DNA of 64,000 nt from Methylotenera sp. (GCA_046590165.1 JBKJUR010000017.1:12330-76329); one strand, 5' to 3'; counted from the first letter of the stretch, positions 2,877 to 30,856 are shown. Numbers and translations are program-made. Notes: generated from the sequence alone by a model not told the origin.

Positions 2877-2974
2877 ATGAGCCTAGCCGTACTATATAGC
2901 CGCGCTTTGAGCGGCATGGATGCACCAGAGGTGGTGGTAGAAGTGCATCTAGCCAATGGACTGCCAAGCTTTAC
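2877..2974 (+). pseudogene. comM: comM/yifB 5' fragment (first 32 codons plus 2 nt), severed by island insertion
   Basis: ATG at 2877. It translates MSLAVLYSRALSGMDAPEVVVEVHLANGLPSFT(I), the conserved ComM/YifB N-terminus. The frame then runs into island DNA (LCTINFKST) and stops at TGA 3006-3008. Confidence 0.9.
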
Positions 2975-3111
2975 TATATTGTGTACTATTAATTTTAAGT
3001 CCACATGATGGCTTGAAATATGCCAACGATTGTTGGTGTCTCATAAAGTGCAATTGTTAATCATGTGCACTAATGAAGGGCACAACTATGCCCGTGTGTT
3101 TTATCAAGCGC

Positions 3112-3549
3112 TTATTTTGCTATTTCTGATCTGATTGTTTTAGCTGTTGTACTAAGTGTGTTATCTAACTCACCATTTTCTACAGCTTTTTTCAATAGTT
3201 CTATCGCAGGAATTAAAGTTTCAAGATTATCAACTTCAATACCAGTTTTTCCTTTCAGCAACTCAATCCGTTTATTTGCATATCTCACTTCAAAAATAAC
3301 TTTTCCTTCTGGTGTTGTGTACCACCAAGGCTTTATTCGACGCTGCCATTCAACCTGTTCCCGTTGACCAGTTTCAAGTTTAAATGACTTAAAACTAAGA
3401 ACAAAATAATCAGAGCCTTCTACTTTTGCTTTAGCGCACTCAAATTGATGCTCAAGTTTATTCAATAAATTGCTACGTCTTTGTAAAGTTGGTGATAAGT
3501 TTGCAGGCCTATTTGCAGTAATTACTTTTAAACCATCTAAATAACCCAT
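3112..3549 (-). CDS. Hypothetical protein (145 aa), first gene inside the island's left end
   Basis: The ORF has no stops. It is basic and helical (MGYLDGLKVITANRPANLSPTLQRRSNLLNKLEHQ...). It resembles small proteins I recall from ICE/plasmid backbones, but I cannot name the family with confidence. Confidence 0.55.
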   Translation of the reverse strand: MGYLDGLKVITANRPANLSPTLQRRSNLLNKLEHQFECAKAKVEGSDYFVLSFKSFKLETGQREQVEWQRRIKPWWYTTPEGKVIFEVRYANKRIELLKGKTGIEVDNLETLIPAIELLKKAVENGELDNTLSTTAKTIRSEIAK

Positions 3550-3651
3550 TTGAAAATCTCCAATAACGAATTTAATAAAATCACCTATATTTTTTAATGA
3601 AAATTAATACATGTGAGCGAAATGATGAGAAATAATAATCACATCAAGAAA

Positions 3652-3679
3652 ATGTAACATTTTGATAATTATGTTACAT
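3652..3679. promoter_or_regulatory. 28-bp palindromic site (ATGTAACATTT-TGATAA-TTATGTTACAT) in a divergent promoter region
   Basis: There are two copies of the 9-bp palindrome ATGTWACAT spaced 10 bp apart. Read another way, the site has 11-6-11 geometry. The right arm TTATGTTACAT differs by 1 nt from the E. coli dif XerD arm TTATGTTAAAT (from memory). It lies between the 145-aa gene and the tyrosine recombinase gene. Confidence 0.55.
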
Positions 3680-3730
3680 TAACTAAGGATATTATATAAT
3701 ATAACCCATTGAAATATATAGGTTATTTGT

Positions 3731-4300
3731 ATGGCGCAAGCAAAATCATTAACTATTGCACAATTTGAGCAGGTACTAGAATCAATAGTCCCAACAAGAT
3801 ATTCAGCCAGAGATAGAGCGATGATTTTACTTAGTTTTTGGTCTGGGATGAGAGTGGGAGAAATTGCAGCTTTAAAAATGAGCGATGTTATTACAATTGA
3901 AGGAATCATCATTGATGAAATTCGATTAAAGCCTGAACAAACTAAAGGAAAAAATTACAGGATGGTTATGATTGGCTTAAGACTATGTAATGAATTAAAT
4001 ATTTACATATCTACGCTAGGTCACGATGAAGTGGATGCTCCGTTATTTGTTTCTCAAAAAACCAAGAAAAAATTTAATCCAAATGCATTGGGACAAAAAT
4101 TCAAGCGTATGTTTGAGAATGCTGGCATTTATGGCGCTACAAGCCATAGTGGGAGGCGCACTTTTATTACCCAATTAGCAAATAAAGGTATAAGTGTCAG
4201 AGTTTTACAGTCTTTGGCAGGGCATAAGAGTATCGTTACGACCCAACTATATATCGATGTTAATGATGAAATGAAAAGAACAGCTGTAAATATGATGTAA
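3731..4300 (+). CDS. Short tyrosine recombinase (catalytic domain only, 189 aa)
   Basis: The catalytic residues appear in the canonical order: R in WSGMRVGEIAAL, H-x-x-R in SHSGRRTF, and H...Y in AGHKSIVTTQLYIDV. There is no N-terminal SAM-like core-binding domain. Confidence 0.8.
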   Translation: MAQAKSLTIAQFEQVLESIVPTRYSARDRAMILLSFWSGMRVGEIAALKMSDVITIEGIIIDEIRLKPEQTKGKNYRMVMIGLRLCNELNIYISTLGHDEVDAPLFVSQKTKKKFNPNALGQKFKRMFENAGIYGATSHSGRRTFITQLANKGISVRVLQSLAGHKSIVTTQLYIDVNDEMKRTAVNMM

Positions 4301-4365
4301 TAAAATTAAAACACTACTCTTAAAGTATTGATTCAAATGTAAACTTATTGAAAAAAATAGATATA

Positions 4366-4383
4366 TACCAATTTTAATTGGTA
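4366..4383. promoter_or_regulatory. 18-bp perfect palindrome TACCAATTTTAATTGGTA upstream of the SIR2 gene
   Basis: Read directly from the sequence. It sits 34 nt upstream of the SIR2 ATG (4417) and is a candidate operator or hairpin. Confidence 0.4.
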
Positions 4384-4416
4384 CTATATTTAATAATAAT
4401 AATTCAGGGGACCCTG

Positions 4417-5562
4417 ATGGTAGAACGGATAAATTTAGAAGAAATATACGATAAAAACATCAATATTCTTATTGGATCAGGAGCTTCATCTGGGTTGTTT
4501 CCAACCCTATCATTAAATATGAAGAATGATGATTCTTGGCACACTGTTGAAACAATAGCAACATTGATTGAACAATCAAAAAGTTCGGATAAGGTTAAGT
4601 TAAAAGCACTTCTGTTTATGCATTACTACAAAACTTGTATAAAACCCATATCCGAATTTGATGTAGATATACTGGATTCAGCACAGAGTTCAGTAATTGA
4701 AAATTATTCAATATTATTAAAAACAATTTTATACATTTTGGGTAAGCGACGCTCTTCCGACAGAAGGTGTAATTTATTCACAACCAACTATGATGGATGT
4801 CTTGCATTGACTGCAGATAAAATCTTAAAAGAGGGTAAAACTGAATTTATAATTAATGATGGAACACGTGGATTTAGGAAAAAATACTTACAAGCAAAAA
4901 ACTTTAATTCCTATGTCAGACAAACTGGAATATTTTCACTTCAACATAATGATTTGCAACAAATCAATCTAATTCACCTTCATGGTTCAGTATATTGGCA
5001 TAAGGATGGAGAAAATATTGTTGTTGACTACAGTAAGTCAATAAATTCTTTATTAGTATTTGATGAGGTTTACTTAGAAGCATTTTCTACCATGCTCGAA
5101 GATGAAAAGACCACATTTGAAATGCTTGAAATATACGCATCTTTGCTGGATGAAGATTTCGAAATAATTGCATCAAAGTTTTTAAATGAGTACAAACCTC
5201 TCCCAATCGTAAATCCTACAAAATGGAAGTTCCATGAAACGGTATTTGAAGAGCACTATTATCAAATGCTAAGAGCTATGAGTTACGAGCTCGAAAAACC
5301 AAATACTGTATTCATCACATTTGGGTTTTCATTTGCGGATGAACATATTTTAAATTTAGTAAAACGATCATTATCTAACCCAAGTCTACAGCTTTTTATT
5401 TGTTGCTTCGACTCAGCCAATGAAGAAAAATTGCGAGCTAAATTTATTGGTCATGAAAATGTTCAATTTATCGCAGCTAAAAGTGGAAATTTAAATTTCG
5501 AAAAATTTAATACTGAAATTTTCACCTTAAATCCTCCAACCCACCCAGTGAATGATGAGTAA
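4417..5562 (+). CDS. SIR2-like NADase domain protein (defense-type SIR2_2)
   Basis: Motifs GSGASSG (NAD-binding GxGxS), TTNYDGCL (TxNYD) and IHLHGSVYW (catalytic His). I prefer the ATG at 4417 (MVERINLEE...), which is preceded by CAGGGGA, over the track start at 4378. The stop overlaps the herA start (TAATG). Confidence 0.85.
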   Translation: MVERINLEEIYDKNINILIGSGASSGLFPTLSLNMKNDDSWHTVETIATLIEQSKSSDKVKLKALLFMHYYKTCIKPISEFDVDILDSAQSSVIENYSILLKTILYILGKRRSSDRRCNLFTTNYDGCLALTADKILKEGKTEFIINDGTRGFRKKYLQAKNFNSYVRQTGIFSLQHNDLQQINLIHLHGSVYWHKDGENIVVDYSKSINSLLVFDEVYLEAFSTMLEDEKTTFEMLEIYASLLDEDFEIIASKFLNEYKPLPIVNPTKWKFHETVFEEHYYQMLRAMSYELEKPNTVFITFGFSFADEHILNLVKRSLSNPSLQLFICCFDSANEEKLRAKFIGHENVQFIAAKSGNLNFEKFNTEIFTLNPPTHPVNDE

Positions 5563-7337
5563 TGACTATTAATGTAGGTGAAGTCATCGCGGTGAGAGGG
5601 GTTAGCATAACTCTAAAGATTTTCGATGAATCTAATAAAGATGTACTTTTTCATAGAGGGGAAAAATTCAAAGGTATTTCAATAAGGGAATACGTAACTA
5701 TTCAAAGAGGTTTCAAAAGCATTGTTTGTATAGTGCAAGGCGAATATTTAGACGAATCTAAATACGAAAAAGATGGTGTAGAGCGTATATCTTGGATACG
5801 TAAAGTTGAAGTAAAACCAATTGGATATTTTGAAAGTGATCTGTTTTTTGAAGGTATTAAATATCTTCCAATGATTAAGGATTTGGTTTTTTTAGCATCT
5901 GAAGAACAAATCAAAAGCATATTTAGTAAAGAAAATAGTAAAGATAAAGGTTTTGTAATTGGTGAGTTATTAAAAGAAGGACTTCCTATTTCTTTACCTT
6001 GGAAAAACCTATTCAATAGTCATATTGGTATATTTGGGAATACAGGTAGTGGAAAATCAAACACTCTTACCCACCTTTACACCACACTGTTTAAAGAAAA
6101 GAAAGAAAATATACAAGGTAAAAGCAAATTTGTAGTTTTAGATTTTAATGGGGAATATACAAAAAATCAGCTCATAGATGCAAATAATAAAAAAGTATAT
6201 AACTTAAGTACAAAAAATAATGATGGCGATAAATTTCCAGTTACACCAAATGAATTTTGGAATGCAGATACTTTATGCTTACTTTTTAAAGCCACCTCTA
6301 ATACTCAAACTCCCTTTATTAAAAGAGTTGTAAATGGTCAAAAGAAGTATGGTCAAAATGCTAATAGTTTGACAAATTATGTAAAAGCAACTTTTGAAAA
6401 AAATTTTAAAACGCAATCCCAGAAGAGAGAAACCATTGACTTACTAATTACTGTCGCAAAGGTAATCGGGAGTGAAGAGTTAATTAAGAAACTAAGTAGC
6501 CTGTCTTGGCATGGACAAGCTGGTAATTTTTATATCGTGAATGGACCACATTTTAATGGAGGCGATAGTCCTGCTTATGTAGCTATTTTTCAAGAAGAAG
6601 TTACCAACATAAATATTCAGAATTTAAACTTCTTCCAAGAGTTAATTTTAAGAATTAATTTACAGTTGGTGAATGATTTACTATCTGGATACGTTCAATT
6701 TGAGCATATCCAGCCACTTTTAAAACGCATTGAGGCATTAGCATTTAGCTTAGCTCAAATAATTGAAGTCAAAGATAATATTATTGAAAATAGGCTATTA
6801 ACCGTTATATCTTTAAGACAGTGCAATCAAGAGGTTAAAAAAGTTCTTCCCCTTTTAGTTGCCAAACATTTTTATGAAGGACACAAATCAACTGTAAATG
6901 CTCCTCCTGATAAAACTGTCCACTTAATCATCGATGAAGCTCATAATGTTTTATCACAACAATCATTAAGAGAAGAGGAGTCTTGGAAAGACTATCGTTT
7001 AGAACTTTTTGAGGAAATTATTAAGGAAGGAAGGAAGTTCGGATTTTATCTTACTTTGTCGAGTCAAAGGCCAGCAGACATTTCACCTACAATCATGTCG
7101 CAAGTTCATAATTTTTTTATACATAGATTAGTCAATGACCGAGATCTTTTTTTACTAGATAATACGATTAGCACTCTGGATAGTTTATCAAAAAGCATGA
7201 TTCCAAATCTATCTAAAGGGAGTTGTATACTTACTGGAACTGCATTTGATTTGCCTTTGCTAATTCAGGTAAATTTACTGATTAAGGAGCAACAGCCTGA
7301 TAGTGAAGATGTTGATCTAGAAGTTTTATGGACATAA
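5562..7337 (+). CDS. HerA-like (DUF87) hexameric ATPase/helicase
   Basis: 591 aa. Walker A is GIFGNTGSGKSNTL and Walker B is VHLIIDEAHNVL. It is followed by KEGRKFGFYLTLSSQRP, typical of the HerA/FtsK-like clade. It is translationally coupled to the SIR2 gene. Confidence 0.85.
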   Translation: MTINVGEVIAVRGVSITLKIFDESNKDVLFHRGEKFKGISIREYVTIQRGFKSIVCIVQGEYLDESKYEKDGVERISWIRKVEVKPIGYFESDLFFEGIKYLPMIKDLVFLASEEQIKSIFSKENSKDKGFVIGELLKEGLPISLPWKNLFNSHIGIFGNTGSGKSNTLTHLYTTLFKEKKENIQGKSKFVVLDFNGEYTKNQLIDANNKKVYNLSTKNNDGDKFPVTPNEFWNADTLCLLFKATSNTQTPFIKRVVNGQKKYGQNANSLTNYVKATFEKNFKTQSQKRETIDLLITVAKVIGSEELIKKLSSLSWHGQAGNFYIVNGPHFNGGDSPAYVAIFQEEVTNINIQNLNFFQELILRINLQLVNDLLSGYVQFEHIQPLLKRIEALAFSLAQIIEVKDNIIENRLLTVISLRQCNQEVKKVLPLLVAKHFYEGHKSTVNAPPDKTVHLIIDEAHNVLSQQSLREEESWKDYRLELFEEIIKEGRKFGFYLTLSSQRPADISPTIMSQVHNFFIHRLVNDRDLFLLDNTISTLDSLSKSMIPNLSKGSCILTGTAFDLPLLIQVNLLIKEQQPDSEDVDLEVLWT

Positions 7338-7567
7338 AAGAATTTCTATATATCTTAATAAACTAAGATGCCATTTTAAAAAACATAAAACTAAACAATT
7401 TTGACTAGTAATAAGTAGTTAAATCACTTAATTTAATATGGCTATGAGCGTATTCTTGGCAAAATAAATGCTGATGGAATAGTTATTAATTTAGGACATA
7501 TTAAGCGCGGAATGATTTTTACTAATGAAATATAAAACCGATTTAACAAGAAAATACTAAGAATAAA

Positions 7568-10500
7568 ATGTACAAAAAATTGAAATTTTCCTTAAATATT
7601 GATTTCTCCAACAAACAACCAAAACTACATTTATCTGAATATCAAAATAAATTTATAAACGTCGATGGCACTCTGCTTGAGTTGGCTGAAGCAATTAATG
7701 ATGGAGAGGCTTTTAGTTATCAGTTCCACAATGAAGAGCGCAAAACGGCAAATTTCTTATGCTCGGATTTTCTAGTCGTAGATATCGATGAAGGATGGAT
7801 GATATCAGATGTGCTTAACCATCCATTGGTTAGTAAACACTGTAGTCTGCTTTACACTACTCCCCGACATACTTCAGAAAACCATCGATTTCGATTAGTG
7901 TTTGTACTGCCAAAAACTATTTTCGACTCAAGAGAATTAAAGGCTGCAACTAAATCTTTAGTAAGGCGATTAGGCGGTGATATGTCTGCGACCGATGCAG
8001 CAAGGATGTTTTACGGCTCCATAAATTCATATCAAGAAATTTCAAATAAAGAGCTGTCAGAAGAGCTTTTAGCTGAACTGATAGCCGATGGTTTAGTGAA
8101 TCCTGTCAGTGATTCAAGTATGCATAGACCAGCTCTTAGCATGTCTAATTTGACTATTAAACCAGATTTTGAGATTACCACCGCTGTAAGTGGTGTTCTA
8201 AAGTTTATGGATTTCAAGAAAAAAACTAATGTTTACTGTCCTTTTCATCCCGACAAAAATGCGAGTGCCTTTGTCGGCTTAAACGCTAAATCCATCCCTT
8301 ATCTAGTTTGTTCAACTTGCCAATTTACACGCTGGTTAGAAGGAAATCATAAGGAAGATTTTGATTTCCATAGCTTCGAAAATACTGTAAGTGAATATTT
8401 ACGCACTCCACCTACCAAAATAAATGAATTTGAAACTCCTCTTACACGATTACTTTACGATTCAGTACCGCTAGAAAATAAAGGTATTCACTTTTCAAAT
8501 GATCGTTATTTACAAATCAATAAAATTGAAAATGGTATTACTTTTATCAAGAGTCCTAAAGGTACTGGTAAGACAAATTTTCTGAAAGACTATTTAAAGA
8601 AGATTATCTTTAAAAATTCATCTGTCAATTTAGAGAGTTTTGTAGAAGATATTAATACAGGTAAAGATGCACCAATTTACACTAATAAGAAAGTATTATT
8701 AATCGGACACCGGCAGGCTTTAATAAGTGAAATGTGCAAACGACTAGGTTTAGTTTGTTATCTGGATATCAAAAATACCAAAGACTTAGCTAAAGGTGAT
8801 AATCCAAACTACGGAGTTTGTTTAGACAGTTTGTGCGTGGCACTTGGCGACCAATCTAAAACTAAATGGGATCTCATCATTATTGATGAGTCAGAACAAG
8901 TTTTATCACATTTTTTGTCTGAAACATTAGGTGATAAACGCATAGAGATATTCAATCAATTAAACATACTCATCGGTAATGCTAAAAGGGTTGTTGCATT
9001 AGATGCTGATTTAGGATGGATCACATTCAATACCATTACCAGAATGGCGAAATCTCAATCTGATGCCGTCATACCAATTCAAATACATATAAATAAATGG
9101 GTTGATGGCTCGAAGCCTATATTCATTTATCAAACTTCATCTCAATTGATCGATCATCTAAAACAATCCATTATTGATGGCAAACAAATTTTTGTCTCTT
9201 CTAATTCAAAAAATAAAATTCAATCATTAGAAAAAGCGATTGAAGAGTTGGCAAATAAACTAGGTATTCAAATTCCAATGATCTCCATTACTTCGGAGAA
9301 CTCTAAATCGACTATTAACCAACATTTCATTACAAATATTAAGTCAGAGATAATTAAATATAAAGTCATTTTATCTTCACCGTCATTAGGAACCGGTATT
9401 GATATTACTTTTGATAAAAATTCTGAATTTATAGATTGTGTATATGGGTTGTATGAAAACAGAATCAATACCCATTTAGAAATTGATCAGCAGCTAAGAA
9501 GGGTTAGACATCCAAAAGAAGTGCATGTTTGGGTGTCACCAAGTTTGTATAACTTTGAATCTGAATTTGAAGTTGTTAAAGATGAATACCTTAATAATAA
9601 CTTTCTTCTAAATTTGTATTACCAACAAATCCTTACAAATAACCCCCTTAAGATTTCAAATGAATTTGTAGGTAATTTTTTAATGATGGCTGCTCTAATA
9701 ACAGTTTATCAAAGATCTTCAAAAAATAAGCTTAAGCGCAATTTTCTGGAATACAAACAAGCTGATGGCTGGCAGATTTTAGACGTATTGCAAGATGAAA
9801 TAGCAATGAATGTTGGTAAAGAGTTTTTCAAAAGAGGCGCTAACCTATTGAGCGAAGAAATGATTGCAGATATTTTAGCCTCAGCACCATTAAGAAGAGA
9901 GGAGTATGACGATATTAGTGAGCGAATGGATGCCAACGATAAAGAAGTTTCGAGAAGTGAATATTTTTCATTACAAAGAACCAAGCTGGAATTATTTTAT
10001 CGCCAATCTATCAGCCGTCAGCTTATTAAAGATGATAATAAAACAAAACTTCGTCGGGGCATTTTGGCATACGAAAAGATCACCAATTCTGAAAGGATAA
10101 AATTTATTATTCAGGATAAGACAGCAAACAAAATGAATGTTCATGAACTAGGGCTTCATGAAAAAATCCTTCCTGATAAAAATACTGCTGCTATGTTGCT
10201 GTATCAATTATTTGGCAAAACGCCTATTTTCAGTAATGGCATATTCCTTGAATCAATCGAATTTAAGAAAGATGATTTACAGGATTTCATTAAGCTAGTG
10301 ATTAAAAGAAAGTCTTTTATCGAAAATCATTTGGGTTTGAATGTTCGATCAGATATCGTCATGAAACCAGTTCAATTTTTGGGACAGTTACTAAAAGAGG
10401 TTGGTTTAGGTCATTGGAAAGCAAAATCACATATCGTAAAAGGTATGAAAATTTACATTTATATATTAGATCGAGATAAGCTGAATTCAGTTAAAAAAAC

Positions 10501-10594
10501 TGTTCTTTTAAGAGAGAAAATAGAATCTCAATGGAGTTTTTTCTATGATTTACATCATTTTAAAGATGAAGCAATCACCCATTATATTGACTAA
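7568..10594 (+). CDS. Primase-polymerase (AEP-like) / CHC2 zinc finger / P-loop helicase fusion protein (1008 aa)
   Basis: The N-terminus has FLVVDIDEG (DxD) and TTPRHTSENHRFRLVFVLP, an AEP/PriCT-like pattern. YCPFHPDKNASAF...CSTC is a CHC2 primase-type zinc finger. FIKSPKGTGKTNFL is Walker A and WDLIIIDESEQVLSHF is Walker B. The remainder is a long helical C-terminal region. Confidence 0.7.
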   Translation: MYKKLKFSLNIDFSNKQPKLHLSEYQNKFINVDGTLLELAEAINDGEAFSYQFHNEERKTANFLCSDFLVVDIDEGWMISDVLNHPLVSKHCSLLYTTPRHTSENHRFRLVFVLPKTIFDSRELKAATKSLVRRLGGDMSATDAARMFYGSINSYQEISNKELSEELLAELIADGLVNPVSDSSMHRPALSMSNLTIKPDFEITTAVSGVLKFMDFKKKTNVYCPFHPDKNASAFVGLNAKSIPYLVCSTCQFTRWLEGNHKEDFDFHSFENTVSEYLRTPPTKINEFETPLTRLLYDSVPLENKGIHFSNDRYLQINKIENGITFIKSPKGTGKTNFLKDYLKKIIFKNSSVNLESFVEDINTGKDAPIYTNKKVLLIGHRQALISEMCKRLGLVCYLDIKNTKDLAKGDNPNYGVCLDSLCVALGDQSKTKWDLIIIDESEQVLSHFLSETLGDKRIEIFNQLNILIGNAKRVVALDADLGWITFNTITRMAKSQSDAVIPIQIHINKWVDGSKPIFIYQTSSQLIDHLKQSIIDGKQIFVSSNSKNKIQSLEKAIEELANKLGIQIPMISITSENSKSTINQHFITNIKSEIIKYKVILSSPSLGTGIDITFDKNSEFIDCVYGLYENRINTHLEIDQQLRRVRHPKEVHVWVSPSLYNFESEFEVVKDEYLNNNFLLNLYYQQILTNNPLKISNEFVGNFLMMAALITVYQRSSKNKLKRNFLEYKQADGWQILDVLQDEIAMNVGKEFFKRGANLLSEEMIADILASAPLRREEYDDISERMDANDKEVSRSEYFSLQRTKLELFYRQSISRQLIKDDNKTKLRRGILAYEKITNSERIKFIIQDKTANKMNVHELGLHEKILPDKNTAAMLLYQLFGKTPIFSNGIFLESIEFKKDDLQDFIKLVIKRKSFIENHLGLNVRSDIVMKPVQFLGQLLKEVGLGHWKAKSHIVKGMKIYIYILDRDKLNSVKKTVLLREKIESQWSFFYDLHHFKDEAITHYID

Positions 10595-10617
10595 ATTAAT
10601 ACATTTGTCAGGATAAC

Positions 10618-10710
10618 TGTATATTCCGGTAAAAAGAGCCACTCATTCCACTTCAAACCAGCCAGTGATTCCAGTCCAAAACCGCCAACCATAACTACAC
10701 AAAGCTGCCA
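10618..10710 (+). repeat. Left end of nested element: terminal IR plus three direct subterminal repeats
   Basis: The three repeats are tATTCCGGTAAAAAGAGCC, cATTCCACTTCAAACCAGCC and gATTCCAGTCCAAAACCGCC. The ATTCC motifs start at 10623, 10645 and 10668, giving spacings of 22 and 23 bp. Confidence 0.7.
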
Positions 10711-10973
10711 TTTAAATTTATTACTACTGAAATGCTCGAATGAGTAAAAGGTCCACAAAGCGGGCATTAGTGCATCTGGAAATTGCTAATGAGGCTAATT
10801 GACATATTTTGAAAACCTCGATTGACAGTGATTTCAATATGTTCGCTAACAGACATAATATATGAATGCTGAGTGGTATCCTAGTTATGCGAATTTGGAG
10901 TAGAGTGTACGAAGTAATTCGATTATTTTTTAGAAAAAGATTGATGACACTCAACTACAATGTACCTAGCAAC

Positions 10974-11702
10974 ATGCATAATCATTTGCTTGCAGCCTTC
11001 CGCTTCATGAATTCAATCGCATTTCATCAGGCGTTGAGTTAGTTAAAATGCCGCTGGGTGAGGTACTTTGTGAGTCTAATGAAAAGCTCAATCATGTTTA
11101 CTTTCCGACTACCTCTATTATCTCATTGGTCTATGTATTAGAAAATGGCGCGACAGCGGAAATTGCCAGTATAGGTAATGAAGGTATTTTGGGTGTCACT
11201 TTATTGATGGGTGGTAACACAACAACGAGTTTTGCAGTGGTGCAATCTGCAGTGTATGGGTATCGCCTAAAAGCGTCTTTATTATTGGCAGAATTTAATC
11301 GCAGAGGGCCATTGATGCATCTTCTACTGCGCTATACGCAAGCGCTGATCTCGCAAATGACACAAACAGCCGTTTGTAACCGATATCACACCATAGAACA
11401 GCAACTATGCCGCAGATTATTATTAAGCCTAGATCGCAGCCCTCTTGCTCGCTCACCATGACGCAAGAACTCATTGCCAATATGCTAGGTGTACGCCGCG
11501 AAGGCGTGACAGAGGGGCAGGAAAACTTCAACACCTAGGCCTGATTCAATATAAAAGAGGTCGCATTGATGTGATTGATCGAGTTGGGTTAGAAAAATCG
11601 GTTTGTGAGTGTTATCAGGTGTTCAAAAAAGAGTTAGATAGACTAGTCTCAGATATTCCACAAGGCGACCCGCAACATGTGCTTGGTGAGTCGATTACTT
11701 AA
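10974..11702 (+). pseudogene. Crp/Fnr-family transcriptional regulator, multiply frameshifted
   Basis: MHNHLLAA (10974-) shifts frame to LPLHEFNRISSGVELVKMPLGEVLCESNEKLNHVYFP..., which is ORF 11048-11461. A further piece, MTQELIANMLGVRREGVTE, lies in a third frame. The HTH tail AGKLQHLGLIQYKRGRIDVIDR is in ORF 11445-11702. There are at least three frame breaks. Confidence 0.8.
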
Positions 11703-11728
11703 TCTATCCTTATTTTTACAGGTTTAAT

Positions 11729-12283: not shown

Positions 12284-12434
12284 AGTGCTAATGGGTTGCC
12301 TTTAACATGGAAGCAGTTGTACTCATCTGAAACAGCAAGTATGAATAGCTTTGTTTATAGTAATAGTTTAACGAAATAAACAAACACCAGATCATTAACA
12401 ACGTGAATGTAATAAACTCAGAAGGAGTTACTCT

Positions 12435-17944: not shown

Positions 17945-17979
17945 ACACTAAGCCAGCTTTTAACATACACTTTTTTTGA

Positions 17980-22527: not shown

Positions 22528-22698
22528 TGCCTGACACTCAGGTCGCTTGCCAAATCGTACAAAAAGTGTCAATTGAGACCCGTAATTAATTGTAAGTTTT
22601 CAGTAAACTCAAAATCAACCTAAATTGTAGTTAAATGTTATATCTTCGGATGAGTGACAATCTCATCCGATTTTTATTGATAAATAAGGAAGTATCAA

Positions 22699-23038
22699 AT
22701 GAAAAAAATGATGTTAGCAATACTCGTATTTCCCCCTTTTAAGCACCGTTACTGTTTCAAGTTATGCAATGGGTAAGATGGTGGAAATGGCCATGCCTGC
22801 AAAAGCTACAGCCAGCCATACAACAATTAGAGGTCAGGGCAAGGTCGTTCTAATTAACCAAGAAAAAACGATGGTCACCCTTAAACATGACCCTATTGCA
22901 TCCATACAATGACCAGCAATGACAATGGCCTTTAAGGTTAAAAACAGTGCTGTTTTAGCTAAAACGAAAGTGGGTGATAAAGTGAATTTTACTTTGGTGC
23001 CTGATGGAAAAAACTATATGGTGACCAGTATTAAATAA
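22699..23038 (+). pseudogene. cusF: CusF-like periplasmic copper-binding protein, inactivated
   Basis: The signal peptide frame (MKKMMLAILVF) breaks at the C5 run and continues in the +1 frame (PLLSTVTVSSYAMGK...). An in-frame TGA at 22910-22912 replaces the conserved Trp of the H-x...-W-P-A-M-T-M motif (...HDPIASIQ*PAMTMAFKV). Confidence 0.8.
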
Positions 23039-23134
23039 ATGTATTGACCCTTGGATTAACCCTAAGTAGATTCCATAAATGGCTGCTTAGGGCCCAATTT
23101 ACCAGTTCGCTTATTATTAAAATCAAACTATCAC

Positions 23135-23182
23135 TGACAGCTTTTCGTAATTAGGGGTGGCGGCTTTGGAGTGGAATATACA
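23135..23182 (-). repeat. Right end of nested element: terminal IR plus a single subterminal repeat
   Basis: The reverse complement reads TGTATATTCCACTCCAAAGCCGCCACCCCTAATTACGAAAAGCTGTCA. Its first 10 nt are identical to the left terminus (10618-10627). From the ATTCC onward it matches about 34 of 44 positions of the left end's third repeat and adjoining sequence (10667-10710). Confidence 0.7.
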
Positions 23183-23318
23183 GGATAACTAATTTTTAGT
23201 TATAAAATATTATAAATATTAGTTAGGTTATCCTTTTTTACGAAAAAATTTATATTGTCTATTTCAGTCGGGTGGTGAGTTTATGTATAAATAGATATAT
23301 AAACGTGAGATTGATAAG

Positions 23319-23774
23319 ATGGATAAAGCAGTATTGATAGCCAAATTAATTGAATGGACTGCTAGTGGTGAGAAAGGCTTCTTTGTAACTTTAAATGCAA
23401 AAACAAATGACAAAATTTGTTTTGAGCAGGATTTAAGTAAATTTGCACATAAGCTAAATGACTATTGTTATGGTCGCGTTTATAAGCGAAAAGAAAAACA
23501 ATTGAAATTAATGGCTGGAATTGAAATTGGCCAATTAAATCAGATGCTGCATGCTCATCTTTTCATTCAGCACGATGACCAAATGAAAAGAACCTATTCA
23601 GAAGTAAATTCACATATTAGAAAACAGTGGTATGGATTAATCGGTTCAAAAAATTCAAATGGCAATATGGTGGATGTTGCACCCTTAGGTAATGTGCCAA
23701 CACGTATTTCCTATATGGTAAAAGATACAGTTTATTTAAAGCGTAATGACTTTTTAAATTTAATTTGGTTATAA
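23319..23774 (+). CDS. HUH-motif endonuclease-like protein (RCR Rep / relaxase-like, 151 aa)
   Basis: Three motifs occur in canonical order: GFFVTLNAK (motif I, FxTLx), MLHAHLFIQ (HUH) and RISYMVKD (YxxK). Confidence 0.55.
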   Translation: MDKAVLIAKLIEWTASGEKGFFVTLNAKTNDKICFEQDLSKFAHKLNDYCYGRVYKRKEKQLKLMAGIEIGQLNQMLHAHLFIQHDDQMKRTYSEVNSHIRKQWYGLIGSKNSNGNMVDVAPLGNVPTRISYMVKDTVYLKRNDFLNLIWL

Positions 23775-24408
23775 ATAGTAATACTTGAAGCCTGAGGCGA
23801 ACTCGGCAATTAATATGATGAAATACTTTTTGTATGGTAGATAACCCCATAGGTATTGGGATATCTAAAATATTAATAATTAGAGTATTGTTTCAATCAA
23901 AACAGAAACAACAGATCAACATTACATACCTAAGCAATCAAACTTGTTTGATTTTTAAATCTGGTCATTTATAGATACATTTTACAGCTTTAAGTCTCCA
24001 CTGAATATTGTTCAAAGTAGCACCCCAAACTGATTCAAGAAATCCATCTATAATTATGCAATAAAGCCATTCAGAATAATTACTTTAGGTTATGAACATT
24101 AGCAAAAAAGTCCCCGTAGCTGACACGCACACCTGAATGTCTCAAAATTGTCACGTTAATTTTTATTGACTGACTGCTTTTTCCTGCGAATTCAACTGGT
24201 CGATGCAATACATTGGTTAAATATCACGGTAACTAAGGGAAAATGGCAATAGAGTCAGAAAAAAATGACTGATGATTTCGTTTGAGAAATGATGAAATGG
24301 TAAAGAGGGTCTTTTTTTCATGCTTCACTTTACTTCACAGTTCCATATAAGCTAAACAAAGTCGAAGTTAAGCTGACAATGCCAATTTAATATTATGGGC
24401 ATATAGAT

Positions 24409-24948
24409 TCAAACCCTCTCCTTATTAATCTTCAGCCAATACCCAATCACATGGCCTGTAACGGATAAGACAATTCCAAGAAGAAGCGCACCAAAAACAA
24501 AACGAAGTTGAAAGTCAATAAACCAAAAACTTCCTAAAATAGTTCCTATTATCCAATCGGTCTGATCCCAGAAGTACCAAGAGTGCCCCAGTGCAATGTG
24601 CTTCTGTCGCTTCAACAAACTTTTTATGGCATCACCCATCAATGCAGAAAACCCCATCCATGGTCCCAACCACCAAGTATAATAATTCTCATCAATGGAT
24701 AGCCCCTGAAATGATTCATGATGCGTCACAAGGTATCGTTGCACTTGGTGAATCAAAAAGGAGACAATCACTCCAGCAATTATACCTCTGATCGTTTTAT
24801 GAGCCCCCAAAATTCTTTGGCTGCGCCACTGCTGGTTAAAATCCAACGGCCAATCCCAATTTGGAAGCAGCTTTGCGGCCACCGGAGGGATGGCATTGGC
24901 GAAACTTGCAGGAACTAAAAACCATAAAATACTGAGCAGAAAATCCAC
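24409..24948 (-). CDS. CarS-family (DUF46, CDP-archaeol synthase-like) membrane cytidylyltransferase
   Basis: ASFANAIPPVAAKLLP...WPLDF...RILGAHKTIRGIIAG and MGDAIKSLLKRQ...WDQTDW match the DUF46/CarS pattern as I remember it. Confidence 0.65.
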   Translation of the reverse strand: MDFLLSILWFLVPASFANAIPPVAAKLLPNWDWPLDFNQQWRSQRILGAHKTIRGIIAGVIVSFLIHQVQRYLVTHHESFQGLSIDENYYTWWLGPWMGFSALMGDAIKSLLKRQKHIALGHSWYFWDQTDWIIGTILGSFWFIDFQLRFVFGALLLGIVLSVTGHVIGYWLKINKERV

Positions 24949-25493
24949 TAATTACTTTCCCTCCACAAAATAATCATGTACTGGAGTGCGGCAAGAACAC
25001 CGACAATAGCTGCCGTGGTTACCAGTGCTGATATAGGTTCATTTATTTGAAATAGAATTGCCAAAAACACTAGATACTGAATAAGCGTTGTGATTTTGCT
25101 TAATAGTTTTGCCTTAACTGATTTTGTCTTTGTAACGCGGCCGGTTACCGTTAGAGCAACCGCAATTAGTAAAACCCCAAGGTCTCGGGCACTCAATAAA
25201 ACCCAATAATATAGAGATAGCTTTTCCAACCATACCCACGTCAGACTGACCGATAGAAAAAACAATTTATCAGCAATTGGATCTAGCACCTGTCCGAAAT
25301 AACTATGCCAGCTAAACATTCTTGCAAGAAAGCCATCAAGAAATTCAGTGGCCATTGCAATCAGAATTATTGTTAAATGCCATGACTCTGATGCAAATGG
25401 AAATAGTAAGGCTAAAAATAGACGTAACCAGGTCAGCGCGTTAGGGACGTGCCGTAATGGAGAAGCTATTGATGATTTAGGTGCTTGGCTCAT
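24948..25493 (-). CDS. CDP-alcohol phosphatidyltransferase family protein
   Basis: The signature D-G-x2-A-R-x8-G-x3-D-x3-D is present in EFLDGFLARMFSWHSYFGQVLDPIADKL. The stop overlaps the start of the downstream CarS-like gene by 1 nt. Confidence 0.85.
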   Translation of the reverse strand: MSQAPKSSIASPLRHVPNALTWLRLFLALLFPFASESWHLTIILIAMATEFLDGFLARMFSWHSYFGQVLDPIADKLFFLSVSLTWVWLEKLSLYYWVLLSARDLGVLLIAVALTVTGRVTKTKSVKAKLLSKITTLIQYLVFLAILFQINEPISALVTTAAIVGVLAALQYMIILWRESN

Positions 25494-25648
25494 AACTACT
25501 TATTTGCTGCATACTAAATACAATTTTTTCACATTGGCATTGTAAGGACCTAAAAAGTCACTCAACGCGTAGCCCACTTTTATAAAGCAATGAAAACAGT
25601 GTGTACTCAAATTACAATATGCGCAATGACTGTGCAATGCGAATAGAC

Positions 25649-25683
25649 TTAAAAAAACGACTTGAGCGTTAACTTAAGTCGTT
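25649..25683 (-). terminator. Rho-independent terminator following the tRNA-Phe fragment
   Basis: On the minus strand it reads AACGACTT-N12-AAGTCGTT followed by T7. It lies directly 3' of the CCA end at 25700. Confidence 0.7.
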
Positions 25684-25699
25684 GTTTTAATTTTAAATT

Positions 25700-25744
25700 T
25701 GGTGGCCGTGGACAGAATCGAAGTGTCTACACGCGGATTTTCAA
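25700..25744 (-). pseudogene. tRNA-Phe(GAA) 3' half (anticodon loop to CCA), relic attachment site
   Basis: The reverse complement reads TTGAAAA-TCCGC-GTGTA-GACAC-TTCGATT-CTGTC-CACGGCC-A-CCA. It parallels E. coli tRNA-Phe (TTGAAAA-TCCCC-GTGTC-CTTGG-TTCGATT-CCGAG-TCCGGGC-A-CCA, from memory). There is no 5' half upstream, and the T-stem has one C-C mismatch. Confidence 0.75.
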
Positions 25745-25961
25745 TTGTAAAATTATCATTTATATAGTGTTATAGGCTCGCCCTCACTCGTTTATGCTCG
25801 TTAAGGTGATGACATTTCACAAAGTAAAACAAAACAAGAGTAGTTAGGTGAATAATTTTTAGAAAAGTCTACAAACCCTAAAATTATCGAGGAAAATTAT
25901 ATGGCAAGCTCCTTTAATTATGATTAAATAGGATAAAACTTTCTAAGTTAAGTGAGCCAAT

Positions 25962-26354
25962 ATGGCAATTGAACTCTTATGTTTAGTCTGGTCCGTGGTA
26001 TTGGGACTTACCCACATTTTAATAGCTGGGCAAGCGCGAACTAATGAACTAGGTACTAAATGGAATACAAGTGCAAGAGATGGTGTGCAACCTGTTTTGA
26101 GCACCGTAACTAATCGGCTGTTTAGAGCACAAGCAAATTTCTTTGAAACATTTCCACTATTTGCAGTTGTAATATTAATAACTGCCGTCACTCAACTTTA
26201 TTCAATATACAGTCAGATCGGAGCAATCTTATATCTTGTAGCAAGATCTGTTTACCTTCCCTTGTATGCTTTTGGAATTCCTTATATCCGTACTGTTGTT
26301 TGGTTAATTTCGTTACTAAGAATTATGTTAGTGTTGTTTCCACTTGTCTTTTGA
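25962..26354 (+). CDS. MAPEG-family membrane protein
   Basis: 130 aa with about 4 TM segments. ...RLFRAQANFFETFPLFAVVILI... is typical of bacterial MAPEG proteins. Confidence 0.65.
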   Translation: MAIELLCLVWSVVLGLTHILIAGQARTNELGTKWNTSARDGVQPVLSTVTNRLFRAQANFFETFPLFAVVILITAVTQLYSIYSQIGAILYLVARSVYLPLYAFGIPYIRTVVWLISLLRIMLVLFPLVF

Positions 26355-26452
26355 TTAGTGTCAGACGTAACATAAATTTATTGAATTCATTTAGCATTTA
26401 GGAGTTCAGGCTATTCTGAATTGGCTTATCTTATATTTTTAAAGTCGATGGT

Positions 26453-26986
26453 TTACTCTAAGCTATCAACTCCATTCCATACAGCCACGCCATCTGGACT
26501 TGTGATAAATTTCTTTTCATACACTTTATAGATGAGTTTATTAACTTCTTTAAACTCACTTAATAATTTATCACAATCGGCTCTATTCGCAGCCTCACAC
26601 CGAAACGCCATATCCACATTCACGTGATCTGTAGAGCCGACGTCTATTATTCGTTTAACTACACTAGGGTGTGCATAATGCCCACCTTCGGTAAATGCCC
26701 ATTCAATATATTTACCTTCTTTAACAACATACCAAGGACCAGTTCGCTCTTGCCAACCGAAGGGTTTGGTATTGGCTTTTAAAACAGTATCTTTGCGCTC
26801 TTTAACTGAATTGATCGCCATTGCGATAGTTGGATAGCCAATTTCAATGACATATGCCGGATCTACTTGAGTTATTTTTTTAGATTTGACGTTGCCCTTC
26901 TTTTTACTCGAAGTTTTTGTTAAAGCATCTGCATTTATTGATGCAAGGCCAATTAAAATGGCTAGTATGTAAACAATGATTTTCAA
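26453..26986 (-). CDS. Secreted hypothetical protein (177 aa)
   Basis: A signal peptide (MKIIVYILAILIGLASINA) followed by a Lys-rich linker. No motif recognised. Confidence 0.5.
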   Translation of the reverse strand: MKIIVYILAILIGLASINADALTKTSSKKKGNVKSKKITQVDPAYVIEIGYPTIAMAINSVKERKDTVLKANTKPFGWQERTGPWYVVKEGKYIEWAFTEGGHYAHPSVVKRIIDVGSTDHVNVDMAFRCEAANRADCDKLLSEFKEVNKLIYKVYEKKFITSPDGVAVWNGVDSLE

Positions 26987-27551
26987 TTAAATCTAATAAC
27001 TTGTCTGTTCAGATTAGTAACGAGGAGTAAGGGTTAACCGTAAGCAGCTCTCAGTGAACTGCTCTTTTATGGCTGTAGTTGACAAGAGTTCCTTAATGGC
27101 GACAAGTTCAGCTGCGCGCTTTCCCATTGTATTCATTTTAAAATACCAGCTTAGTCTCGTCTTGCCCCATATCATACATCAGCTCAGTTAGCTGTAATGT
27201 TGATCGCAATTGTAAAATGTCCCTAGGGCCGCTTTTAAATTCACGAAGAGGTAGGGCTAAAAGGAGACGGTTATGCACTTTTCTGGTCGAATTGTAAGTA
27301 ATTGACATCAATAATTTTCAAAAAAATCACTTTTAATGAATCACTTACCCACTCGAAATTTAGTAATTGAATATACTATTAATCATACGTCATGTCCGTT
27401 AACTAGCATAACGAAATTAACTGTGATATGGAATGTCCAAGAATTAATAAACAAATAGTCTTTCTTGGATGGATGTTTTTGGCCCAGAGCGGTCATTTAC
27501 CTCCTAAAAATAATTGAGAAATGAGTGTTGCCATTGTGTAAAAGATGCGCC

Positions 27552-29354
27552 TTATAAACAATTCTCTGTGGCTCCTTTTTTTAGGAATACTGAATGAACA
27601 AATGAAGAATCTCTACCTGTATAAAATTTTCTAACTATTCCTGTTCTGTAAGTGATACGAACTGATCGATTATAATTACGATTGAAAAGCTCGAAATCAG
27701 GATGGTTGATTATTTCTTCTAATGTTAGATTTGATCTACTTTTAAATGTTTTTCTAAATTCAATAAAAACTATATCTTCTTCTGGATTTGTAGCAGTCTC
27801 CATATCATCTGAATCATTATCGCTATCAAACTCCCACGGCATAATATGCTGTTGGTCATAAACCAATTCTATTTTAGTGATAAATTTAATTAGGAATTGG
27901 TTCAGTGTTGATCGAAAAATGTAATCATCTTGATGATCTTCAATCTTAGAAATCATTTGTTTTAGTTCTACTGTATTGAATAACTTTACAGTGGCTGATT
28001 CTTCATCTATGAGTTTTTTTATATTAATTATTTCAGATTCAAGTTGATGAATTTCTAGATCTAATAAATTTTGTTTAGTTATGAATTTCTTTCTGACGTT
28101 ATCAGATAATTCTTTTTCAATACTTAAATCCATCGCACGATCTAGTTCTTCTTCTTTATTCTTTTTATTTGAAATTACAGCGCTCATCTGATCACTCAGG
28201 GACACTTTCTTATCGTCAGATGATATATCTATTAACTCAGAAAAATTAATCTCTCTAAGGTGCTTAAAAAGCATCCCTTCAAATTCTGATAAATTCCAAC
28301 TCGGTAATTGACACCCCGCAGATACATTTTTATTCGAGCAAACAAGATATTTTCCACTTTTTGATTTTGAATTGTGATTTCTGATCATTATTCTGTAACC
28401 ACAAAGGCCACAATGTAATAATCCAGAAAACAAGTTGGTGAAATTGCTGCCTTTCCTGCCCTTGCCTGAAACAGATCTCTTACCGATGGCAACTTGAGCA
28501 AGTAGAAATGTTTGCTCATCAATGACTTTGGGATAATAGTCGCTAACAGGCTCATCAATTTTTTTTCGTTTGCCGTCAATATAATGATGAGGTGTTAGCT
28601 CTCCAATAACAGAACGATTTTCGATGATTTTTTTAATATAAGAAACATACCAGATTTTACCTTTACCAAATTGTGGAGTATTGGTTTCATTCAGATGCCG
28701 TGCAATTGAGTATAGACCGCATGTGTTGATACACATATCAAATATCTTTATAACAATCTCACCTCGTTCTGGAACAATTACGAATTTTTCAGATTTTTCA
28801 TCGTATTCCAACCAAGCTGGACAATTTCGAGTGAGTATTTTACTTTGAGCGTTATTACGTTTGTTAATCCATGATGCAATTAACCTTTTCGATTTAATTT
28901 CTGATTCTTCATTGGCTCTGAACATTACACCAAGGCTTATGAATAATGATCCAGAATTAGAATCAATGATTTTTTTAGTGTATTTTTGGTTGTCAATTAG
29001 TGTGACAATTTCTATATCTTTTTTTAATATACTAAAAAACTGTGGCATTGCCTCAGATATTTTATCTCGTGATAATCGGTCAAGACTTTCAATGAGTAAT
29101 ACGCTATTTTTCTCAATATTCCCTTGTTCTAATGCTTCTAAGAATATTGCAAGAACCCCTTTTTGAGTGTTTTTTCCGTTGAATCCAGAAACACCAATAT
29201 CGCGTAGTACAACACCATCAATGGAGTTTACTAATTCAAGATTATTATTAATAGCATAGGTTTCTGATGCTTCAAGCTGACGTCTTAGACTATCTCCTTT
29301 AAGTTGGATGTCTGTTGACATTCGGATATAAGAATAAGCTTTTCTAATTTTCAT
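27552..29354 (-). CDS. Large serine recombinase (integrase of the comM island)
   Basis: The N-terminal resolvase catalytic domain has YSYIRMSTDIQ (nucleophile Ser) and ESLDRLSRD. A recombinase domain follows, then a Cys-rich zinc ribbon (LLHCGLCGYRIM...YLVCSNKNVSAGC) and a coiled-coil region. 600 aa. The ATG lies 38 bp from the attR crossover. Confidence 0.92.
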   Translation of the reverse strand: MKIRKAYSYIRMSTDIQLKGDSLRRQLEASETYAINNNLELVNSIDGVVLRDIGVSGFNGKNTQKGVLAIFLEALEQGNIEKNSVLLIESLDRLSRDKISEAMPQFFSILKKDIEIVTLIDNQKYTKKIIDSNSGSLFISLGVMFRANEESEIKSKRLIASWINKRNNAQSKILTRNCPAWLEYDEKSEKFVIVPERGEIVIKIFDMCINTCGLYSIARHLNETNTPQFGKGKIWYVSYIKKIIENRSVIGELTPHHYIDGKRKKIDEPVSDYYPKVIDEQTFLLAQVAIGKRSVSGKGRKGSNFTNLFSGLLHCGLCGYRIMIRNHNSKSKSGKYLVCSNKNVSAGCQLPSWNLSEFEGMLFKHLREINFSELIDISSDDKKVSLSDQMSAVISNKKNKEEELDRAMDLSIEKELSDNVRKKFITKQNLLDLEIHQLESEIINIKKLIDEESATVKLFNTVELKQMISKIEDHQDDYIFRSTLNQFLIKFITKIELVYDQQHIMPWEFDSDNDSDDMETATNPEEDIVFIEFRKTFKSRSNLTLEEIINHPDFELFNRNYNRSVRITYRTGIVRKFYTGRDSSFVHSVFLKKGATENCL

Positions 29355-29394
29355 CTTTGAATTATACTATTGAAATAATAGTATACAATATCAC

Positions 29395-30856
29395 TATTGT
29401 TGGTTTGCCTGAAGCGGAAGTCAAAGAAAGCAAAGACCGGGTTCGCGCTGCTTTGCAAACTGCGCAGTTTGAGTTTCCAGCAAGGCGTATTACGGTAAAT
29501 CTGGCGCCAGCGGACTTGCCAAAGGAAAGTGGACGTTACGATTTGCCGATTGCATTGGGTATATTGGCGGCTTCTGGACAGATTCCTACGGAGCCATTAA
29601 GTCATTATGAGTTTGCCGGTGAATTGGCACTCACTGGCGAATTACGTCCTATACGCGGTGCCTTGGCAATGACTTCCAGTATGATACGAAGTCAAAATCA
29701 TTCAGCCAATCAGAAGTTAGAACAAGCTGGGTCAGCTGAGACTAGTACGACCTCAAAACGGGCGTTTATTTTGCCCCAAACTAGTGCGGCGGAAGCTGCA
29801 CTCGTTCGTGAAGCGATAATTTATCCTGCAAAATCGTTACTTGAAGTGTGTGCACATTTAAGTGGTCATACAGCGTTAAAACAACTAGGGCCCGTAGATA
29901 ATTTTACAGAAATCAATTATCCGGATTTTAATGATGTAAAGGCGCAAAGTATGCCTAAACGTGCCTTAGAAATTGCTGCTGCGGGCGGCCATAGTGTGAT
30001 TTTAAGTGGCCCTCCAGGTACTGGTAAAAGTATGCTTGCATCAAGATTTGTAGGCATATTGCCAACTATGACTGAAACAGAAGCGCTTGAATCTGCTGCG
30101 ATACAATCACTTAATGGCGGTTACAAGTTAGAAAACTGGAAGCGCAGACCTTACCGAGCGCCGCATCACACGGCATCTGGCGTGGCATTAGTAGGCGGTG
30201 GAAGTATTCCACGCCCAGGCGAAATTAGTTTGGCGCATCATGGCGTTTTGTTTTTAGATGAATTACCCGAGTTTGACCGTAAAGTATTAGAAGTGTTACG
30301 TGAACCACTTGAGAGTGGTCATATCACTATTTCTCGCGCTGCTAGGCAGGCAGATTTTCCAGCCAGCTTTCAACTGATCGCTGCGATGAATCCATGCCCA
30401 TGTGGGTATTTAGGGCATCACAATAATAAATGTCGCTGTACGCCAGACCAAGTGTCACGTTATAAAGCCAAGATTTCAGGCCCGCTGTTAGATCGCATCG
30501 ACTTACATATTGAGGTGCCTGCGCTAAAAGAGGATGAACTGGTTAAAGCGAGTGAAAGTGAGTATTCACATGCTATCAAAATGAGAGTAGAAAGTGCCCG
30601 TGCAAAACAGTTAAGTCGACAAGGCAAGCCAAATAATTTACTTGGAACTAAAGAAATCGATACGCACTGTATGGCGGATGAGGCTGGTTTGACTTTGCTT
30701 AAAACAGCTATTTCCCGATTAAGTTTATCCGCGCGTGCCTATCATCGGATTTTAAAAGTGGCTCGGACTATAGCAGACTTGGCGGGTGAAGATGCGATAC
30801 AACCTGCACACATAGCAGAAGCTGTGCAATATCGCCGTTATGATAAAACTGCTTAG
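29395..30856 (+). pseudogene. comM: comM/yifB 3' portion (Mg-chelatase-like AAA+ competence protein), separated from its 5' end
   Basis: ...(T)IVGLPEAEVKESKDRVRAAL...GPPGTGKSMLA...GVLFLDELPEF...ARAYHRILKVARTIADL is full-length ComM/YifB apart from the N-terminus. The track ORF start (TTG 29357) lies in island DNA. Confidence 0.92.

Follow-up and report, generated by a model that had tools for sequence, protein, structure and literature searches.

ComM is a YifB/Mg-chelatase-like AAA+ helicase. Homologues of the Mg-chelatase/ATP-dependent-protease type are the target family most enriched among large serine recombinases (LSRs), being hit by 12.4% of the LSRs predicted to be site specific, and an enrichment among the targets holds for competence genes overall as well (Durrant et al. 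2022, PMC10083194). Likewise, comM is a hotspot for the insertion of Tn7-like AbaR islands and of further elements, which are often equipped with defense systems (PMC4774983, PMC11472951). Insertions in comM across genera have been read as mobile genetic elements (MGEs) that block transformation-mediated curing (Croucher et al. 2016, PMC4774983), the more general view being that elements disrupt competence to escape deletion by transformation (PMC4774983; PMC10083194 Supplementary Note 1; PMC11472951). Here, we describe comM in a 64,000-nt stretch of Methylotenera sp. (GCA_046590165.1 JBKJUR010000017.1:12330-76329; this whole stretch is referred to as the window), in which the gene is split by an island of 26.4 kb. 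In our reading, to which we assign a probability of roughly 85%, this is a mobile, plasmid-like island that was integrated into comM by its own LSR through attP × attB recombination at an AC core.

The gene is interrupted at positions 2974/2975 and 29394/29395. By translation, the 5′ fragment (2877..2974, plus strand) consists of codons 1 to 32 and the AC of the Thr33 codon; the N-terminus, read from 2877-2978, is MSLAVLYSRALSGMDAPEVVVEVHLANGLPSFTI, and its amino acids are identical to the N-termini of intact orthologues at three other loci (L001-L003). The frame resumes from 29393 as TIVGLPEAEVKESKDRV (TIVGLPEAEV...), and the 3′ fragment proper (29395..30856, plus strand) runs from the last base of the Thr33 codon to the stop codon. 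It is this fragment that places the interrupted gene in the YifB/ComM family (NCBIfam TIGR00368, 577 bits versus a cut-off of 362), and public gene callers give it as a 499-aa open reading frame (ORF; P0121) with a TTG start at 29357, within the island end. Joining 2877-2974 to 29395-30856 yields 1560 nt in frame, encoding 519 aa with zero internal stops: the residues that span the join (SFTIVGLP) are the same in intact Methylotenera orthologues, and the rebuilt product is 90 to 92% identical to full-length Methylotenera YifB/ComM proteins. Loci L001-L003, which hold two of these orthologues, have an uninterrupted comM in the same setting as the window (amt, P-II, Gcw_chp, and BMFP genes upstream, and an ion-channel gene and metH downstream) and read CCAAGCTTTACGATTGTTGGTTTGCC or CCAAGTTTTACCATAGTGGGTTTGCC over the position of the join. 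Contigs assembled independently from several samples or sequencing runs (L216-L223) have identical attL or attR junctions, so the split is not an assembly artifact. The island is present in samples SRR31159416, SRR31159417, SRR31159421, SRR34294544, SRR22742762, and ERZ1739049. A first-pass annotation, made from the sequence alone, had proposed the split, the pentanucleotide ACTAT at both junctions (2973-2977 and 29393-29397), and the 1560-nt/519-aa rebuilt gene, all of which we verified by coordinate and by translation; the uninterrupted comM that it suggested looking for in related genomes is present in L001-L003.

The island itself (2975..29392; 26,418 bp plus one copy of the core) is absent where relatives have an intact comM, and its ends are set apart by a G+C content of 0.31 to 0.34, against 0.44 to 0.47 in the flanks. 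Its attachment sites, both given on the plus strand, can be laid out around the dinucleotide AC. In attL (2953..2994), the host B arm (2953-2972) precedes the crossover AC (2973-2974) and the island P′ arm (2975-2994); in attR (29373..29414), the island P arm (29373-29392) precedes the crossover AC (29393-29394) and the host B′ arm (29395-29414). Rejoining the island ends gives an attP of the form ...AATAATAGTATACAATATC-AC-TATATTGTGTACTATTAATT... (the left arm also being given as AAATAATAGTATACAATATC), whose arms are complementary about AC at 17 of 20 positions (16 of 19 without the outermost), with the best dyad center exactly on AC. Dyads with a 2-nt gap and a score of at least 16/20 occur at just 2 of the ~64,000 positions in the window, so that chance does not account for the symmetry. 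The predicted 40-mers across the two product junctions are GGACTGCCAAGCTTTACTATTGTTGGTTTGCCTGAAGCGG for attB and AATAGTATACAATATCACTATATTGTGTACTATTAATTTT for attP.

The width of the crossover can be read from four independent insertions made by related LSRs (58 to 100% identity), whose attR junctions are ATATC-AC-TATTGTT in the window, ATATC-AC-GATTGTC in L004, ATATT-AC-CATAGTT in L225, and ATATC-AC-CATCGTT in L226. Conservation of the island arm extends to the base preceding AC (C in three of the four), and the base 3′ of AC tracks the wobble position of the Thr codon of each host; because this base varies with the host codon, the crossover is confined to 2 bp. In L004 and L226, AC is the sole sequence that island and host could have in common, and in L225 the base before AC is a T, as it is in comM, which is compatible with AC and leaves a third shared base not excludable. 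Taken across hosts, the junctions support a crossover at the dinucleotide AC, with which the Thr33 codon begins, and the ACTAT of the window is AC followed by three fortuitously matching bases. As AC is not a palindrome, it fits a fixed orientation of insertion: the LSR gene and the 3′ part of comM are divergently oriented in the window as well as in L004, L225, and L226. The relatives of the LSR, P0001 (74% identical), P0004 (70%), and P0008 (58%), are sited alike relative to comM. The earlier annotation had described a palindrome matching at 16 of 19 positions about a central AC and interpreted it as a serine-integrase attP with a 2-bp crossover; the palindrome holds (and gains one further position), the interpretation agrees with the dyad and with the AC common to independent insertions, and the breakpoint is repeated in a second host allele at attL (L158, L222, and L224) and in L004, L225, and L226 at attR.

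The LSR is encoded immediately inside attR (27552..29354, minus strand; 600 aa), with 38 bp between its start codon and the crossover. The domains are those expected of the class (Pfam Resolvase, Recombinase, and Zn_ribbon_recom), namely, a catalytic domain at residues 6-166 (PF00239, E = 4.4e-13), followed by the recombinase and zinc-ribbon domains (PF07508 and PF13408). Across 42 homologues, Ser13, in the motif YIRMSTDxQ, and Cys315, Cys318, Cys339, and Cys348 are invariant, and the best database relative is 74% identical. An AlphaFold2 model (mean pLDDT of 77) displays a catalytic domain, a long E-helix, a recombinase domain, a zinc ribbon, and a coiled coil, the last predicted at residues 386-458 in the form of two long helices (386-411 and 418-458). 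Foldseek matches to this model are headed by the SPbeta integrase (9dxh, E = 3.9e-18) and include the phiC31 integrase (E = 2.9e-13) and the LI integrase (4kis, E = 7e-9); a profile search of PDB sequences agrees with the structural matches, and a single-sequence search of PDB returned no match. Given a distance of just 38 bp between start codon and crossover, the LSR promoter must, in the integrated state, lie across attR within comM sequence; scans for promoters and terminators at the junctions gave matches at chance level. At the opposite end, the first island gene encodes a 145-aa DUF6641/phrog_31551 protein (3112..3549, minus strand; Pfam E = 3.2e-8, PHROG E = 7e-19), homologues of which are found in other comM-LSR islands. 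In a circular form, reading of this gene would cross attP and continue into the LSR gene, such that LSR expression would differ between the integrated and the circular states.

The preference for comM extends well beyond the window. A search of one genome per species recovered 80 loci with relatives of the LSR (L006-L085; 32 to 74% identity), 38 of which lie within 150 bp of a comM fragment, and relatives down to ~35% identity consistently adjoin comM; judged by these positions, the loci show an LSR family specific for comM. Two sites within the gene are used. Site 1, at codons ~31-37 (FTIVGLP; 2967-2974 plus 29395-29410 in the window), is occupied at 8 to 9 loci, its users being the window, L004, L014, L015, L032, L036/37, L040, L060, and L069. 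Site 2, at codons ~217-239 (about aa 235), just before the Walker A motif GPPGTGKS, is occupied at 29 loci and corresponds to ~29995-30020 in the window (codons ~232-239). The peptides encoded at the two sites are alike (TIVGLP and VILSGPP). A rough neighbor-joining tree intersperses users of site 1 among those of site 2 at no fewer than five points, a distribution suggestive of repeated retargeting inside comM. Among the site-2 loci, five have flanks that reach both comM fragments and delimit islands of ~9 to 11 kb; the junctions were recovered on both sides in four of these (L028 is without the 5′ junction), and an island-arm dyad, judged by eye, is present in L012, the one locus examined for it. 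In some instances, the gene has been hit more than once: in L225 (9296-10000), two different LSR islands fill both sites of one comM, which also contains an in-frame TAG, and in L226 (9091-10000), the site-1 3′ fragment stops near aa 326, where it adjoins a tyrosine-integrase element.

Evidence for mobility of the island comes from a metagenome contig (L158, the same as L224) recovered in a scan for the left arm. It contains 783 bp of island sequence that are 99.9% identical to the window, next to a comM 5′ part and upstream spacer that differ from those of the window at many synonymous and intergenic positions. Its breakpoint is that of the window (TTT-AC-TATATTGTG), and a contig from another sample (L222) has the same. 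Because an almost identical island end is joined to a diverged comM allele, the element must have inserted at this dinucleotide in two or more host lineages; as read from these contigs, this shows an element that is mobile between hosts. The scan pattern, ACNATATTGTRTACTATTA, was designed to match both the junction of an attP circle and further copies of attL. In a viral collection, it gave 10 matches, all unrelated and none an attP, and in metagenomes there was no attP among the 120 matches listed, of which L158 (an attL in a second host) was the sole relevant one. Nearly all of the metagenome matches listed derive from a different, conserved sequence, ...CTGTCTCTGTGTT-ACAATATTGTGTACTATTATAATGGTGCACAAAGATACGAGCAGTTCTT, present on dozens of contigs from a few metagenome studies (within L098-L215, e.g., Ga0209149_* and Ga0209339_*); this sequence has no relation to comM or to the island and resembles a repeated element. 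The exact rebuilt 519-aa ComM is absent from a collection of 15 billion proteins. Contigs with an identical LSR or DUF6641 gene (L217, L218, L222, and L223) end 7 to 28 bp past the junction; we considered whether these ends mark assembly-graph branching due to attP or attB variants and rejected the idea, as the retained bases are of the host type and thus fit strain variation or low coverage, not excision.

With respect to its backbone, the island resembles a plasmid. Its predicted Rep (7568..10594, plus strand; 1008 aa, with a primase-like N-terminus) belongs to the CyRepA1 family (NCBIfam NF042913, 330.6 bits versus a cut-off of 200), matches a PHROG of the "replication" category (E = 2.5e-53) as well as plasmid proteins annotated as CyRepA1, and is 63% identical to its homologue in the L004 island. 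The definition of the family goes back to the cyanobacterial plasmid pSYSA (PMC10079941), and its occurrence here is in a chromosomal island of a betaproteobacterium. A second backbone component is a 151-aa protein (23319..23774, plus strand), 80% identical in L004 and 44% in L007, which resembles REP_ORF2-G2P at a score (25.8 bits in Pfam) under the cut-off of 27.8. Homologues of the Rep and 151-aa genes stand side by side in L004, as do two genes of corresponding size (1019 and 151 aa) in L226/L227. In the window, the two are separated by a ~12-kb cargo block (11048..22527, encoded products identified with Pfam) that contains genes for a cNMP-binding protein, a fatty-acid hydroxylase, two CheB-methylesterase-domain proteins, PRC/DUF2171, an FMN reductase, a pyridine-nucleotide disulfide oxidoreductase, a KaiC homologue, SPFH, and DUF305 proteins; its G+C content at 16 to 21 kb (0.45 to 0.47) is host-like, unlike that of the island ends. 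The KaiC homologue (17980-19494; PRK09302, 625 bits) is encoded directly upstream of one stand-alone CheB-methylesterase-domain protein (17372-17944), with the second such protein 4 kb off (12740-13321), all three on the minus strand and assigned with Pfam and NCBIfam. Near the LSR end (24409-26354) is an unusual lipid-related cargo, comprising a CDP-archaeol-synthase-like protein (PF01864), a CDP-alcohol phosphatidyltransferase, and a MAPEG-family protein.

Between the left end and the Rep gene, the island encodes a SIR2-HerA antiphage defense pair on the plus strand (SIR2 at 4378-5562, PADLOC E = 4.6e-51; HerA at 5562-7337, PADLOC E = 9e-183), which also matches Pfam SIR2_2 and DUF87. The related L004 island has a SIR2-nSTAND protein and an arsenic-resistance operon in its place. 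Also at this end is a gene for a short tyrosine recombinase (3731..4300, plus strand; PF00589, E = 2.8e-28), a protein of 189 aa, about the length of FimB/FimE, that comprises the catalytic domain only and scores under the cut-offs of all NCBIfam Xer and invertase models. Similar proteins (~185 to 195 aa, 30 to 38% identity) recur in seven other comM-LSR islands (L011, L018, L020, L024, L028, L038, and L076), and in L038 the gene adjoins attL. The protein could serve in multimer resolution of the circle, as an invertase, or as a cofactor. A 22-nt inverted repeat (3578-3599/3707-3728, 86% complementary) flanks the 107 bp between the divergent DUF6641 and tyrosine-recombinase genes; the possibility that it encloses an invertible promoter was rejected, as the segment has the same orientation in six of six independent contigs.

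The island was searched for the hallmarks of other element classes with Pfam, run on all ORFs of at least 80 aa, and with PHROGs, run on ten selected ORFs. There are no phage capsid, tail, terminase, or lysis genes among the island ORFs, the phage-related matches being limited to integrases and the replication protein, and a temperate prophage was rejected on this basis. Likewise, there are no relaxase, coupling-protein, or type IV secretion genes among these ORFs (a weak TrwB_AAD_bind match falls within the HerA ATPase of the SIR2-HerA pair), which led us to reject an integrative conjugative element. On its gene content, the element is best described as an integrative, plasmid-like island.

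We propose that the LSR would recombine a near-palindromic attP of ~40 bp with an attB encoding the conserved FTIVGLP, with strand exchange at the nonpalindromic AC. Integration would leave a comM stub of 33 codons and a 3′ part lacking a promoter; because this part is also without the first 33 codons, comM is presumably inactive with the island in place. Since attL, attR, and the LSR gene are intact, as are both pieces of comM, attL × attR excision by the LSR would free a circle of 26.4 kb and rebuild comM exactly, and such a circle could replicate via its CyRepA1-family Rep. The benefit would most likely accrue to the element, for which comM may represent a conserved, nonessential landing site, and loss of ComM may lower the ability of the host to delete the island by transformation; the island might, in turn, pay its way with its phage defense and metabolic cargo.

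Several points weigh against this reading. Recombination, excision, and the loss of ComM function are all inferences. The symmetry of the rebuilt attB is modest (8/20, versus 17/20 for attP), and the assignment of the crossover to AC is based on the attR sites of L004, L225, and L226 together with the two junctions of the window, the attL sites of those three islands lying outside the retrieved flanks. In LSR systems, the recombinase alone catalyzes attP × attB, and attL × attR requires a directionality factor (RDF); no RDF family was recognized among the island ORFs, although RDFs are too diverse for detection by sequence. Finally, neither a circular attP junction nor a repaired comM was seen in public data, the absence from metagenomes (among the matches listed) being weak evidence.

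The same gaps bear on the proposal that the island is a regulated, reversible switch, in which some cue drives excision, comM and transformability are restored, and reintegration or loss follows, as in skin/sigK, SPbeta/spsM, and the Listeria comK prophage. The LSR, attL, attR, and both pieces of comM are intact, comM could be restored precisely and in frame, and the SPbeta integrase that the LSR resembles works in this manner. Moreover, rebuilt comM has no sign of decay, its ratio of nonsynonymous to synonymous divergence (dN/dS) from intact orthologues being 0.04 to 0.06, as compared with 0.045 between two intact orthologues. However, dS to the nearest orthologue is 0.87, so that a recent insertion would give the same dN/dS; the ratio is therefore uninformative on whether comM has decayed, and we discarded it. 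Another host has a near-identical copy, which points to recent spread, the relatives with two interruptions and an in-frame TAG (L225) or a cut near aa 326 (L226) have the pattern of a dumping ground, and the published interpretation is that competence is disrupted to the benefit of the element. Along with the want of a recognizable RDF and of attP or attB products, these observations make a regulated switch unlikely. The initial annotation had predicted precise, reversible excision of this kind; the in silico rebuilding of comM agrees with precise excision, and the regulated part is neither supported nor refuted, no RDF, attP circle, or rebuilt ComM having been found. Similarly doubtful is a conditional version that has a directionality factor, in which excision gives back ComM-dependent recombination, the island persists as a CyRepA1-replicated plasmid and reintegrates, and the LSR clade toggles between sockets at aa ~33 and ~235; candidates for the factor would be the end-proximal DUF6641 protein, the short tyrosine recombinase, or the 151-aa protein, with a 177-aa ORF (26453-26986) and small ORFs at 27014-27311 as further candidates for a factor that reverses direction.

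Readings that dispense with the LSR fare worse. Transposition of Tn7-like elements generates 5-bp duplications, and comM is among their known targets (PMC11472951); ACTAT, as a direct repeat at both junctions, could be regarded as the target duplication of such a transposon (or of another DDE element), with the island ends as its terminal inverted repeats. Yet there is no transposase, TnsABC, or TniABQ family among the island ORFs, termini flush to ACTAT match at 9 of 20 positions as opposed to 17 of 20 about AC, and the base after AC is G or C in L004, L225, and L226, so that at most AC can be shared with the island; the consistent placement of distant LSR relatives beside comM also speaks against transposition, which we regard as very improbable. 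The least probable explanation of all is that the short tyrosine recombinase integrated the island with ACTAT as the overlap and that the LSR is cargo or has some other role. In its favor, the protein has a complete PF00589 catalytic domain, is encoded 750 bp from attL, and has counterparts in other comM islands, but it is without an N-terminal DNA-binding domain and, though Xer/Fim-like, is under every curated cut-off, and it has no homologue in the retrieved parts of L004 and L226 (which do not include the attL-proximal ends), where the breakpoint is the same. An att dyad centered on 2 bp and an LSR gene 38 bp from the site are, in contrast, the signature of an LSR, and integration by the LSR remains our preferred reading.

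As a resource, the locus supplies a new betaproteobacterial integrase/att pair that may be of use as a genome-engineering tool. It also shows a CyRepA1 plasmid-like backbone that ferries SIR2-HerA defense between Methylotenera lineages, and it documents one integrase clade at two discrete comM sites, sometimes at both at once. Within the literature compared, we did not find descriptions of two-site use with repeated switching in one LSR clade, double occupancy, a CyRepA1 backbone in Betaproteobacteria, or a recurrent short tyrosine recombinase; these are increments, and knowledge of how and why mobile elements target comM is left unchanged. The novelty implied by the first-pass annotation was overstated, given that comM/Mg-chelatase genes are the commonest documented LSR target (PMC10083194).

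Among described systems, the elements of Durrant et al. (PMC10083194) share with the island the LSR class, a comM-family target, an intragenic attB, disruption of a competence-associated gene, and the convergence of many distant LSRs; this particular LSR, its att sequences, the Methylotenera host, and the CyRepA1 backbone were not found described, the Durrant database itself being outside the comparison. In the Wolbachia phage WO (PMC9203015), the LSR sr1WO likewise inserts into a magnesium chelatase gene, with flanking gene halves and att sites inferred in the same way, but WO is a complete tailed prophage, whereas the island is without phage structural genes and has a plasmid Rep and a defense system. 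The AbaR/AbGRI islands of Acinetobacter baumannii occupy the same target, and their cargo islands lower transformation (PMC11472951, PMC11441513); they differ in entering by Tn7-like transposition with a 5-bp duplication, genes for which are missing from the island, and the different mechanism that had been ascribed to AbaR is correct. The comM MGEs of Aggregatibacter, Mannheimia, Francisella, and Pseudomonas syringae (Croucher et al. 2016, PMC4774983) are also site-conserved insertions, in different hosts. Gene-rebuilding LSR elements include SPbeta/spsM (SprA/YokA), skin/sigK (SpoIVCA), and A118/phi10403S/comK, in each of which an LSR uses an attB in coding sequence and precise excision rebuilds the ORF, as it does in silico here. 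Regulated excision (and, for SPbeta, the RDF) is experimentally established in those systems; by comparison, the relatives of the island show decayed comM. Set among these, the island is a clean, well-resolved example of an already documented class of LSR target.

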